Shown piece by piece: positions 26,062 through 32,207 of a stretch of DNA of 32,207 nucleotides (its first letter is position 1; every line of letters starts with the position of its first letter). The position numbers and the translations under genes were made by a program. The notes under the pieces are model-generated. The model saw only the letters and a program-made list of their open reading frames with translations, did not search any database and was not told the DNA's origin. The stretch lies in UHGV virus genome UHGV-1442421; one strand, given 5' to 3'. This stretch comes from a virus.

Positions 26062-26087
26062 GCCCTCCAGTGTGAGGGCTTTTTTAT
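26062..26087 (+). terminator. Intrinsic terminator downstream of the post-N cassette
   Basis: GCCCTC-CAGTGT-GAGGGC followed by TTTTTTAT. Confidence 0.55.
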
Positions 26088-27691: not shown

Positions 27692-27988
27692 ATGCCAGCG
27701 CCTCTGTATGGTGCGGATGACGCGCGCCGCTGTTCCGGCAATTCCGTATCGGAGGTGCTGGAAAATATCAAGAATAATCTCGACGCGTTTCTTGCTCTGC
27801 CACCAGAAACAAAAGCAGAACGGAAGTACCGACGCGATATACAACTCGCAGAAAAACAGGAAAAAGACCGAATAAACGAAACATCAATCCGACCATTCCG
27901 CAAAGCCACATATACCCACTTCCCTGAATATATCGACCCGCGCCTGCGTAATTACCGCTCACGCTATGGCGCTATCAGTAATGACTGA
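27692..27988 (+). CDS. Hypothetical protein (98 aa)
   Basis: ORF track; SD AAGGA 7 nt upstream. Confidence 0.5.
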
Positions 27989-30389: not shown

Positions 30390-30608
30390 ATGTACTTGAC
30401 ACTTCAGGAGTGGAACGCTCGCCAGCGACGCCCAAGAAGCCTTGAAACAGTTCGTCGATGGGTGCGCGAATGCAGGATATTCCCTCCTCCGGTTAAGGAT
30501 GGAAGAGAGTATCTGTTCCACGAATCAGCGGTAAAGGTTGACTTAAATCGACCAGTAACAGGTAGCCTTTTGAAGAGGATCAGAAATGGGAAGAAGGCGA
30601 AGTCATGA
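30390..30608 (+). CDS. xis: Excisionase Xis, lambda/HK022 type (72 aa)
   Basis: Translation recognised as lambda Xis (MYLTLQEWNARQRRPRSLETVRRWVRECRIFPPPVKDGREY...). Confidence 0.9.
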   Translation: MYLTLQEWNARQRRPRSLETVRRWVRECRIFPPPVKDGREYLFHESAVKVDLNRPVTGSLLKRIRNGKKAKS

Positions 30609-31659
30609 GCGCCGGGATTTACCCCCTAACCTTTATATAAGAAACAATGGATATTACTGCTACAGGGACCCAAGGACGGGTAAAGAGTTCGGATTAGGCA
30701 GAGACAGAAGGATAGCAGTTTCAGAGGCTATTCAGGCCAATATTGAGTTACTATCCGAGAACAGGCGTGAGTCACTGATAGACAGAATTAAAGGCGCTGA
30801 CGTAATCACTCTTCATGCGTGGCTTGACCGATATGAAACAATCCTCAGCGAGAGGGGTATCAGGCCGAAAACTCTACTCGACTACGCCAGCAAAATCAGG
30901 GCAATCCGAAGAAAATTGCCGGACAAACCGCTCGCTGACATATCAACGAAAGAGGTGGCAGCAATGCTAAACACCTACGTAGCAGAAGGTAAAGCGGCTT
31001 CCGCAAAATTAATCAGGTCAACCCTTGTTGACGTTTTTCGTGAGGCAATAGCCGAGGGGCATGTGGCAACGAATCCGGTAACAGCAACCCGCACAGCAAA
31101 GTCAGAAGTAAGGCGCTCAAGGCTGACAGCTAATGAGTATGTCGCGATTTACCATGCAGCCGAACCTCTCCCAATCTGGCTGAGGCTGGCAATGGATTTG
31201 GCTGTCGTTACAGGGCAGAGAGTGGGCGATTTGTGCAGAATGAAATGGTCAGACATAAACGACAACCATCTTCACATTGAACAGAGTAAAACAGGGGCTA
31301 AGCTCGCCATTCCGCTGACGCTAACGATTGACGCGCTCAATATCTCATTGGCTGATACACTACAGAAATGCAGGGAGACCAGCAGCAGTGAAACAATAAT
31401 TGCATCAACGCATCACGAACCACTTTCCCCGAAAACAGTATCGAAGTATTTTACAAAAGCGAGAAATGCATCTGGACTCTCATTTGATGGAGACCCGCCA
31501 ACATTCCATGAACTGCGTAGCCTGTCGGCGAGGCTATACCTGAACCAGATTGGCGATAAGTTTGCTCAACGTCTTCTCGGGCATAAATCAGATTCAATGG
31601 CGGCGCGGTATAGGGACAGCACAGGCGAGATCTGGGACAAAATTGAAATCAACAAATGA
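30586..31659 (+). CDS. int: Tyrosine integrase, lambda Int family (357 aa)
   Basis: N-terminal arm-binding region as in lambda Int; catalytic motifs HELRSL...LLGH...Y; overlaps xis end. Confidence 0.9.
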   Translation: MGRRRSHERRDLPPNLYIRNNGYYCYRDPRTGKEFGLGRDRRIAVSEAIQANIELLSENRRESLIDRIKGADVITLHAWLDRYETILSERGIRPKTLLDYASKIRAIRRKLPDKPLADISTKEVAAMLNTYVAEGKAASAKLIRSTLVDVFREAIAEGHVATNPVTATRTAKSEVRRSRLTANEYVAIYHAAEPLPIWLRLAMDLAVVTGQRVGDLCRMKWSDINDNHLHIEQSKTGAKLAIPLTLTIDALNISLADTLQKCRETSSSETIIASTHHEPLSPKTVSKYFTKARNASGLSFDGDPPTFHELRSLSARLYLNQIGDKFAQRLLGHKSDSMAARYRDSTGEIWDKIEINK

Positions 31660-32002
31660 CTTTATTTTGACCAACAATGACCTGCTCATGGTAATTTATT
31701 GATAATTAAAGGAATTTTAAATATGAAACTTACCTTATTTAAGGCCCCTTCCTCGGGAGGGGCTTTCCCGTTTCAGCATCCGGCTGAAATCTGCGGCTTA
31801 CCTCCTTTCGCCCTGTATGCAGTCTATCGCTAACGCGTAGATAAAATAGTTTCCTGTGTTATTACTGGATGCGTGCTCGCAAATGTGCCCGCCATTCAGA
31901 CGATTCCCGATAGTGTTTCATAATTCCTCCATTTTTCTCCCTTATTGGCTGGCTACACTAGTATCATTCCGCGAAACGTTTCAGGAAGAGAAACTCTTAA
32001 CG

Positions 32003-32207
32003 ATGAAAGGCAGTTATAAATCCCGTTGGGTAATCGTAATCGTGGTGGTTATCGCCGCCATCGCCGCATTCTGGTTCTGGCAAGGCCGCAATGACTCCCA
32101 GAGTGCAGCCCCAGGGGCGACGAAACAAGCGCAGCAATCGCCAGCGGGTGGTCGCCGTGGTATGCGTTCCGGCCCATTAGCCCCGGTTCAGGCGGCGACC
32201 GCCGTAG
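32003..32207 (+). CDS. mdtA: Host gene, 5' part: MdtA-like RND efflux membrane-fusion protein (first 68 codons; continues beyond window)
   Basis: N-terminal signal-anchor MKGSYKSRWVIVIVVVIAAIAAFWFWQ recognised from memory as E. coli MdtA. Confidence 0.55.
   Translation, partial: MKGSYKSRWVIVIVVVIAAIAAFWFWQGRNDSQSAAPGATKQAQQSPAGGRRGMRSGPLAPVQAATAV

Follow-up and report, generated by a model that had tools for sequence, protein, structure and literature searches.

Comparison with HK022 and lambda

Phage HK022 has its bacterial attachment site (attB) between torS and torT (Yagil et al. 1989; PMC6814406; PMC7736782), and the HK022 integrase (Int) takes an arbitrary 7-bp overlap as long as the phage attachment site (attP) and attB match, requiring only 5 bp in each core site (PMC7736782). 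Here, we describe a stretch of 32,207 nucleotides of viral DNA, UHGV virus genome UHGV-1442421, in which an HK022-type module is found at another target; the whole stretch is referred to as the window. The interval 31660-32002, between the integrase gene int and the host gene mdtA, is probably the integrase-proximal junction of an E. coli prophage whose HK022-type module has recombined with a Sib/Ibs repeat, and we hold this reading with good confidence. In lambda nomenclature, the junction on the integrase side is attL (B-O-P'); it is located at the right of the window, where it reads P'-O-B.

With HK022, the locus shares a 73-bp P' arm with arm-type and integration host factor (IHF)-like blocks, the core-type sites CAACTTA and AAAGGAT, and a 7-bp overlap between inverted core sites. 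However, the overlap is TTCACCT in HK022 (AGGTGAA on the other strand), while it is CCTTATT here. The prophage body is HK022-like in HK022 but P22-like here, and the bacterial site is not torS-torT but a Sib/Ibs repeat upstream of mdtA.

A second comparison is with the secondary-site lysogens and the site-affinity (saf) mutants of lambda, which Weisberg et al. are said to have described in 1983. There, a change in the attP overlap shifts the bacterial sites without a change in Int, as appears to be the case here. The saf mutants, however, arose in the laboratory and carry one or a few base changes, while the present variant is natural, differs at six of the seven overlap positions and is found in ~1.5% of complete E. 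coli genomes.

The Int/Xis/att module

The excisionase gene xis (30390-30608, plus strand, 72 residues) is located just upstream of int (30586-31659, plus strand, 357 residues) and overlaps its start. Both are open reading frames (ORFs), and the ORF list agrees with the end of int at 31659 given in an earlier first-pass annotation of the sequence. Int is an HK022-type tyrosine integrase, 96% identical to HK022 Int (95% at the DNA level) and 74% identical to lambda Int, with which it shares all of its N-terminal 44 residues. Xis had first been described as lambda-identical. In fact, 71 of its 72 residues agree with lambda Xis and all 72 with HK022 Xis, which is the known HK022 situation.

The DNA of int, xis and the P' arm is 94-96% identical to HK022, mEp235, Gally, H19J and several Stx1a phages, and in each of them the homology stops exactly at 31732. 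The P' arm of attP, 73 bp at 31660-31732, is the last phage-only DNA, and 60 of its 73 positions match the P' arm of HK022. At the far junction, the P arm matches the HK022 P arm at 138 of 150 positions (92%). In alignments, the P' arm matches the attP feature of HK022 as well as the lambda Int-binding region annotated as "int 4" (27814-27854). A block at 31643-31683 (minus strand), which overlaps the int stop codon and aligns with lambda "int 4", contains three predicted arm-type Int sites, P'3 AAGTCATTTG, P'2 TGGTCAAAAT and P'1 AGGTCATTGT. The assignment of the individual sites is our assumption, made from knowledge of lambda attP. An IHF H'-like site, TATCAATAAATTA, can be read from the sequence at 31692-31704 (minus strand), where lambda has the TTGATAAG block in the alignment, and we take it to fit the IHF consensus WATCAANNNNTTR. 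Between int and the core, the predicted P' arm therefore carries an IHF site as well as arm-type Int sites in tandem.

All features of a lambda/HK022-family att junction that could be tested were found at this locus, whereas both features of the canonical HK022 site, its overlap and its torS-torT location, are absent. With an Int of 96% identity, an identical Xis and both arms homologous to HK022 attP, the module is, as judged by homology, of the HK022 type rather than an unknown variant of lambda. The lambda core GCTTTTTTATACTAA is missing, as had been noted before: it has no match with two or fewer mismatches anywhere in the window, and the only match with three, at 26078, is at chance level.

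The body of the prophage (window 1-23000) is P22-like, with ~95% identity to the Escherichia phages HZ41, IME10, APC_JM3.2 and Kapi1, and carries portal, terminase, coat and DnaB-like helicase genes. Because of this P22-like body, the HK022-type int module is seen to be a mosaic addition to a podovirus genome, as it is in phage Gally.

Position of the crossover

The last phage-only base is 31732, 73 bp past the int stop codon, and host DNA is found from 31740. In HK022, the distance between the int stop and the junction is also 73 bp (PMC6814406). Homology to the host begins at ~31723-31733, with matches to E. coli genomes opening at window position 31723 or 31729, and it runs to the end of the window in practically all of 5426 complete E. 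coli genomes. In a three-way comparison of the two junctions and the empty site, CCTTATT (31733-31739) is bracketed by phage/host differences immediately on either side. It is the only block that is common to the integrase-proximal junction, the integrase-distal junction and the empty attB, and 7 bp is the length of the overlap in the lambda family. For these reasons, we identify CCTTATT as the overlap, in which the crossover takes place.

The att core, which the first-pass annotation had left unresolved, is thereby resolved. The site had been expected within ~100 bp past int, which is correct, and more narrowly around 31735-31755, a range which CCTTATT overlaps although the crossover sits at its left edge. 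The proposed prophage-host junction upstream of mdtA was confirmed by the match of the host flank to unoccupied E. coli genomes, and the mdtA start at 32003 by the RefSeq annotation mapped through the alignment with these genomes. Phage DNA ends at 31732, nothing of it continues past 32003, and the downstream gene is host mdtA. However, the junction does not adjoin mdtA directly, as had been thought, since host DNA begins at 31740 and the immediate neighbour of the prophage is the Sib/Ibs repeat.

On the phage side, the overlap is flanked by the C' core-type Int site AAACTTA (31726-31732, plus strand; CAACTTA in HK022), recognised in the alignment with the HK022 attP core. On the host side, it is flanked by the B core-type Int site of the bacterial attachment site, TAAGGCC (31740-31746, plus strand), which is identical in unoccupied genomes and fits the core-site pattern MCTTW-N7-WAAGK described below.

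No second prophage end was found within the window; the core occurs only once together with its sites, which places the far junction beyond the window. Its sequence was obtained from E. coli M18, which has a 16-kb remnant between ibsB and mdtA with an int region 99.4% identical to the window, and then from further lysogens. In six lysogens with differing arm sequences, the integrase-proximal junction is ...ATG(A/C/G)AACTTA-CCTTATT-TAAGGCCCC, or in a longer reading ...AAATATG(A/C/G)AACTTA-CCTTATT-TAAGGCCCCTTCC... The integrase-distal junction is ...CATGACCCTTT-CCTTATT-AAAGGATGAC in six of seven lysogens (longer reading ...CATCATGACCCTTT-CCTTATT-AAAGGATGACAAAAT...), and the empty site is ...CATCATGACCCTTT-CCTTATT-TAAGGCCCC... 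The two comparisons suggested in the first-pass annotation, with an unoccupied mdtA upstream region and with the other prophage end, hence define attB as ACCCTTT-CCTTATT-TAAGGCC and locate the matching core, the latter in other genomes. CCTTATT is present at both prophage junctions and TTCACCT at neither.

In the seventh lysogen, ECNB21-M121, TCTTATT is found at the integrase-distal junction (L011 381-387), and its upstream Sib copy retains CCTTATT. The deviation may have arisen by mutation after integration, or it may be what is left of overlap heterology at the time of integration. Within the window, CCTTATT recurs at 31940-31946, inside a BaeR-box-like sequence and without flanking core-type sites, and this second occurrence is taken as a coincidence. 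A scan for tRNA and tmRNA genes found none, so the junction is not a tRNA-type site.

Overlap change or integrase change

From the two junctions, attP can be reconstructed as (A/C/G)AACTTA-CCTTATT-AAAGGAT, with HK022-type arms and core-type Int sites, and the excised circle would read AACTTA-CCTTATT-AAAGGATG. The attP core is ...ATATACAACTTA-TTCACCT-AAAGGATGAC... in HK022, while the reconstructed one would be ...ATATG(A/C/G)AACTTA-CCTTATT-AAAGGATGAC... Six of the seven overlap positions differ from TTCACCT, which is the overlap of HK022, Gally and the Stx1a phages. The bacterial site given above compares with AACCTTT-TTCACCT-AAAGTGC for the canonical HK022 attB in window orientation; in a K-12-like genome, the latter is found as GCACTTT-AGGTGAA-AAAGGTT between torS and torT (PMC6814406).

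The pattern MCTTW-N7-WAAGK was derived from the five inner bases of each of the four canonical HK022 core sites. MCTTW fits these four sites and both sites here, and all examined junctions that bear CCTTATT fit MCTTW-CCTTATT-WAAGK. We suggest that an unchanged HK022-type Int/Xis/arm module could have been redirected to the Sib/Ibs locus since attP and attB share CCTTATT; in principle, the overlaps of the two partners have to match, but the overlap sequence itself is arbitrary.

The Int proteins of six lysogens at the mdtA-proximal site were compared with those of three canonical-site phages (HK022, Gally and one Stx1a phage). The identities among the nine proteins are 94.7-100%, and zero positions are fixed differently between the two site groups. 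As no Int residue separates the Sib/Ibs-site lysogens from the torS-torT phages, the retargeting appears to lie in the DNA, that is in the attP overlap, and not in Int. The first-pass annotation had proposed a site specificity other than that of lambda. It is true that the lambda site is not used, but relative to HK022 the change would be one of the attP overlap rather than of Int. The best-supported mechanism is one in which the change of overlap would account for the new target. Int/IHF-dependent integration and Xis-dependent excision would be expected of a lambda/HK022-family att junction.

Alternatively, the Int protein itself could have evolved a new specificity, and the prophage would then carry a new Int lineage paired with a lambda-type Xis. 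An identity of 74% to lambda Int and the absence of the lambda core are consistent with this, as is the residue at position 319, which affects specificity (PMC7736782) and is L in the window, together with a private C-terminal patch. However, L319 is found only in the window and in M18, while the other four lysogens have R, and the patch is found only in the window. Five positions, 99, 282, 283, 287 and 319, are reportedly those that distinguish the specificities of lambda and HK022, a result attributed to Dorgai et al. from 1995. At the first four of them, the window Int has D99, P282, K283 and K287, as in HK022, in a protein that is 96% identical to HK022 Int. Further, the core-type sites of the variant attP and of the Sib/Ibs attB resemble the canonical ones, and the absence of any residue fixed between the two groups also speaks against an altered protein. 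A new specificity of Int is therefore quite improbable, and the exchange of the overlap is the preferred explanation.

Some observations nevertheless weigh against this explanation. The overlap is not strictly the sole change, as the base 8 bp to its left is G in all six lysogens and A in HK022, a difference fixed between the two site groups. The Int comparison is small, with six against three proteins. The window Int has L319, where HK022 has R and lambda E, and the patch T346/E348/I349 near the catalytic Tyr342, encoded by cacaggcgagatc in the window and by ccgtggacgggaa in all other HK022-type int genes. It may thus be altered or reduced in activity. Finally, an intact variant attP was not found in 50,697 phage records, IMG/VR, metagenome contigs or the complete E. 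coli genomes, so that this attP is only reconstructed from junctions. The deviations of the window Int were mapped to 31540-31545 and 31621-31656 (residues 319, 346-349 and 356).

An exact pattern for the variant attP gave 12 matches in IMG/VR, of which 11 are unrelated and one is a prophage junction. In GTDB representative genomes the single match is unrelated, and the five matches in metagenome contigs are all integrase-proximal junctions. When a synthetic variant attP was compared with the E. coli genomes, the best full-length match was a canonical HK022 attP. The absence of the variant attP is weak evidence, since intact HK022-family attPs of any overlap are limited to two in IMG/VR, those of HK022 and mEp235.

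Distribution among E. coli genomes

The integrase-proximal junction is present in 85 and the integrase-distal junction in 84 of the 5426 complete E. coli genomes, with ~84 carrying both, and in ~98% of the genomes the site is empty. The lysogens have at least three host-flank haplotypes, Sib arrays of two or three copies, four Ibs alleles at the junction and five MdtA alleles. They also vary in arm sequence, in prophage size, from 16 to ~50 kb, and in the cargo beside the P arm (hypothetical genes, EspJ, GtrB). Since host flanks, alleles, arms and cargo all vary, the genome comparison speaks for an att variant in circulation and against a single trapped insertion.

The other possibility is that a canonical HK022-type phage once inserted at a secondary site and was trapped there. 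This ancient insertion would have been inherited vertically and its body replaced later, and there would be no phage lineage with a CCTTATT attP. That an intact variant attP was found nowhere agrees with such a history, and 14 genomes have an essentially identical far junction (100%, 99.8% in one). In M18, the one of these 14 that was examined, the prophage is a 16-kb remnant, which looks vertical, and several copies have IS3 insertions in int. However, a secondary-site insertion does not agree with CCTTATT at both junctions and TTCACCT at neither. The different host flanks, Sib arrays, and Ibs and MdtA alleles listed above, as well as the large majority of empty sites, also count against it, and the arms are as diverse as among canonical HK022-type phages, with unrelated cargo (P22-like body, EspJ, GtrB). 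A single trapped insertion is thus unlikely, and a circulating att variant is favoured.

In several lysogens, e.g. E. coli UTME-9 and 2013C-4974, an IS3-family element in the int region splits the integrase, and these prophages are probably locked in place. In IMGVR_UViG_2648501235_000001 (L028 1-130), the integrase-proximal junction leads into a Sib terminator that is interrupted by a Tn5/IS50-type end (CTGTCTCTTGATCAGATCT); a transposon appears to have inserted there in a sequenced strain.

The Sib/Ibs target and its copies

In unoccupied genomes, the gene order is yegL-ibsA-ibsB-mdtA, with a third ibs copy in some strains. The ibs toxin genes are on the minus strand, each within a plus-strand SIB_RNA (RF00113, 142-150 bits), and the target is the mdtA-proximal copy of this Sib/Ibs type I toxin-antitoxin repeat, which has a unit of ~329 bp. 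The SIB_RNA model ends on CCUUAUU. Thus, the overlap consists of its last 7 nt, just before the terminator, and on the opposite strand it is located 8-14 nt upstream of the start codon of ibs. In SibC, this region corresponds to the single-stranded TRD2 segment, which base-pairs with the translation-initiation region of ibs and is followed by the terminator stem (P7) (PMC2943612).

Only the mdtA-proximal Sib copy is used, because the other copies depart from MCTTW-CCTTATT-WAAGK. The ibsA copy has AAAAG on the right, a poor core site, and in the ibsE copy the overlap is CCTTCTA. In the ibsB copy of K-12, CCTTATT is followed by TATGG instead of TAAGG, which is off the 17-bp consensus (K-12-like strain 7FA, L001 2511-2524). 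From this sequence, laboratory K-12 may be a poor recipient for the CCTTATT att variant.

A join to another copy was seen in the metagenome contig ERZ772867 NODE_22669 (L035 1317-2271; 1.97x coverage), where int-P'-CCTTATT-Sib terminator is connected to the yqiK flank, which belongs to the ibsE copy at a different chromosomal locus. The native ibsE site is ACCCTTT-CCTTCTA-TAAGGCC, with two mismatches in the overlap (L037 1100-1300), and among the 5426 complete E. coli genomes the join to the yqiK flank does not occur. Either another Sib paralog was hit in a rare insertion, or the assembly is chimeric across the shared 38-bp repeat.

Elements between int and mdtA

The window keeps only the part of the repeat that follows the end of the Sib model, namely the terminator and the region upstream of ibs. 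A full Sib RNA with an ibs ORF on the opposite strand is not present, as SIB_RNA is not detected in the window even at E<=10. In general, Rfam gave nothing at gathering thresholds on the whole window, and on 31500-32207 only chance-level matches at E<=10 (e.g. IS128 at 18.8 bits, with a gathering threshold of 80), so that the interval holds no intact RNA family.

Directly past the end of the Sib model, at 31741-31766 (plus strand), is the terminator hairpin of the Sib antitoxin RNA, with an 11-bp stem, -19.3 kcal/mol and z = -3.1. It is identical in unoccupied sites, and is here host DNA orphaned from its Sib gene. The GC-rich hairpin of the first-pass annotation does exist as a strong hairpin at this position, while the interval given for it, 31751-31776, folds no better than shuffled sequence (z = -0.2). 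A second, weaker host hairpin, TTTCAGC...GCTGAAA, at 31770-31790 (plus strand; -9.0 kcal/mol, z = -2.5), is kept in all copies of the Sib repeat. The remainder of the Sib/Ibs repeat unit extends over 31740-31883 (minus strand), with conservation between the ibsA and ibsB copies to about 31883. We infer that it holds the 5' untranslated region and the promoter of ibs, which would point into P' and int. The ibs mRNAs are ~160 nt long, with upstream promoter elements (PMC2943612).

A 36-codon ORF (31723-31833, plus strand) with an upstream AAAGGA, first reported together with its Shine-Dalgarno sequence, extends across the join between phage and host, inside a TTG-initiated ORF at 31699-31833. 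The frame and its upstream motif are real, but the ORF is chimeric and mostly host repeat; it is probably a non-coding read-through of the Sib terminator. One might instead assume that the interval has functional elements of its own, of phage or hybrid origin, namely a 36-codon protein and a phage terminator hairpin, given that the ATG at 31723 opens such a frame behind AAAGGA and a strong hairpin comes after it. However, the hairpin as well as 31 of the 36 codons belong to the host Sib/Ibs repeat and are found in unoccupied genomes, the frame crosses an RNA terminator, and the ATG is lacking both in HK022-type attP (ATATAC) and in the ibsA copy (ATA). Such features are highly improbable.

Closer to mdtA, an intact BaeR-box-like sequence of the mdtA promoter is found at 31932-31949 (plus strand), 193 bp past the crossover. 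It matches the BaeR-box consensus as published, TTTTTCTCCATDATTGGC, at 17 of 18 positions, with 0 matches expected by chance. The 5' end of host mdtA (32003-32207, plus strand) runs off the window; it is identified by the RefSeq annotation under the match in thousands of genomes.

Effect on the host locus

At the far junction, SIB_RNA is full length, with 142-150 bits as in empty sites, so the promoter and body of Sib are kept while its terminator is lost. The P arm after CCTTATT reads AAAGGATGACAAAATAAT..., and no terminator-like hairpin was detected there. Rebuilding of the Sib 3' end by the phage was considered and rejected, as the P arm has no such hairpin and the Sib terminator is at the other junction. 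The far junction retains an intact, annotated ibs ORF with its Shine-Dalgarno sequence, but all DNA upstream of this Shine-Dalgarno sequence is of phage origin, and ibs would thus be cut off from its promoter. Probably, the toxin ORF is silenced while the antitoxin body persists, which would make the insertion harmless. As the family is repeated, the loss of one Sib/Ibs copy is probably tolerated. The mdtA promoter region with the BaeR box is untouched by integration.

The arrangement resembles integration at the 3' ends of tRNA, tmRNA and small-RNA genes in that the crossover falls at the 3' end of Sib, a gene for a structured small RNA, just before the terminator. However, the tRNA/tmRNA style of integration rebuilds the 3' end of the gene, whereas here the Sib terminator stays at the other junction. 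Unlike a tRNA-style target, the target is also one member of a repeated toxin-antitoxin family.

In HK022 lysogens, a prophage promoter next to the junction was found experimentally to read outward across attL and to take over the transcription of torS (PMC6814406). A promoter-like element in P', directed outward to the host (ATGACC-18 nt-GATAAT, 31677-31706, plus strand), has the same ATGACC and GATAAT hexamers as HK022 P'. It comes from a consensus scan only, in which 2 sites were found and 1.0 expected, and this match makes it a candidate for the counterpart of the attL promoter in HK022. The P' arm is 20-70 bp from host DNA and, as in HK022, is directed at genes on the same strand, here mdtABCD-baeSR, although here the Sib terminator hairpin and 270 bp intervene between P' and mdtA.

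It is conceivable that integration is not neutral. The Sib/Ibs module is split, and the P' promoter and the orphaned ibs promoter, the latter reading antisense into int, could alter the expression of efflux and envelope-stress genes, the control of the Ibs toxin or the expression of int. We regard this as rather unlikely. If true, it would be a second case of regulatory rewiring like that of HK022 at torS, arisen by the swap of a 7-bp overlap.

Significance and related attachment sites

The principle that arbitrary overlaps need to match is established, and nothing here contradicts it. Laboratory work on lambda and HK022 predicted retargeting through the overlap, but it has seldom been documented in wild prophages. 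The present locus is a natural and widespread case in which a lambda-family module is apparently redirected by a change in nothing but the 7-bp overlap, while the integrase, the excisionase and the arm sites were retained. Searches of the literature combining mdtA, yegL, yegM, ibsA, ibsB and Sib with prophage or integration gave no description of the ibs/sib-mdtA site, within an incomplete coverage that makes a prior description possible.

The locus also provides an attachment site with the 17-bp core CCTTT-CCTTATT-TAAGG in a type I toxin-antitoxin and small-RNA repeat beside the mdtABCD-baeSR efflux operon. Because some such prophages carry effector or O-antigen modification genes, the site aids the calling of prophage boundaries. 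Further, it suggests an orthogonal attP/attB pair for integration tools based on HK022 Int, for which the K-12 copy (TATGG) deviates from the consensus.

Two related att sites were seen elsewhere. In E. coli EC5931 (L039 1575-1960), an intact canonical HK022 attP (TTCACCT) is present in the chromosome and is followed by a truncated integrase fragment, which suggests that prophages are nested or in tandem at the torS-torT type site. In E. coli O157:H7 PV15-279 (L040 1575-1830), an intact attP-like site comes after a degenerate lambda-family int, among the effector genes nleA, nleH and nleG, with similar matches in ~450 genomes. Its arms are ~78% identical to those of the window module and it has a third core, CAACTTC-CATGTCA-GAAGGAG. 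This site may represent a further overlap variant with the same att architecture that was fossilised in a prophage.

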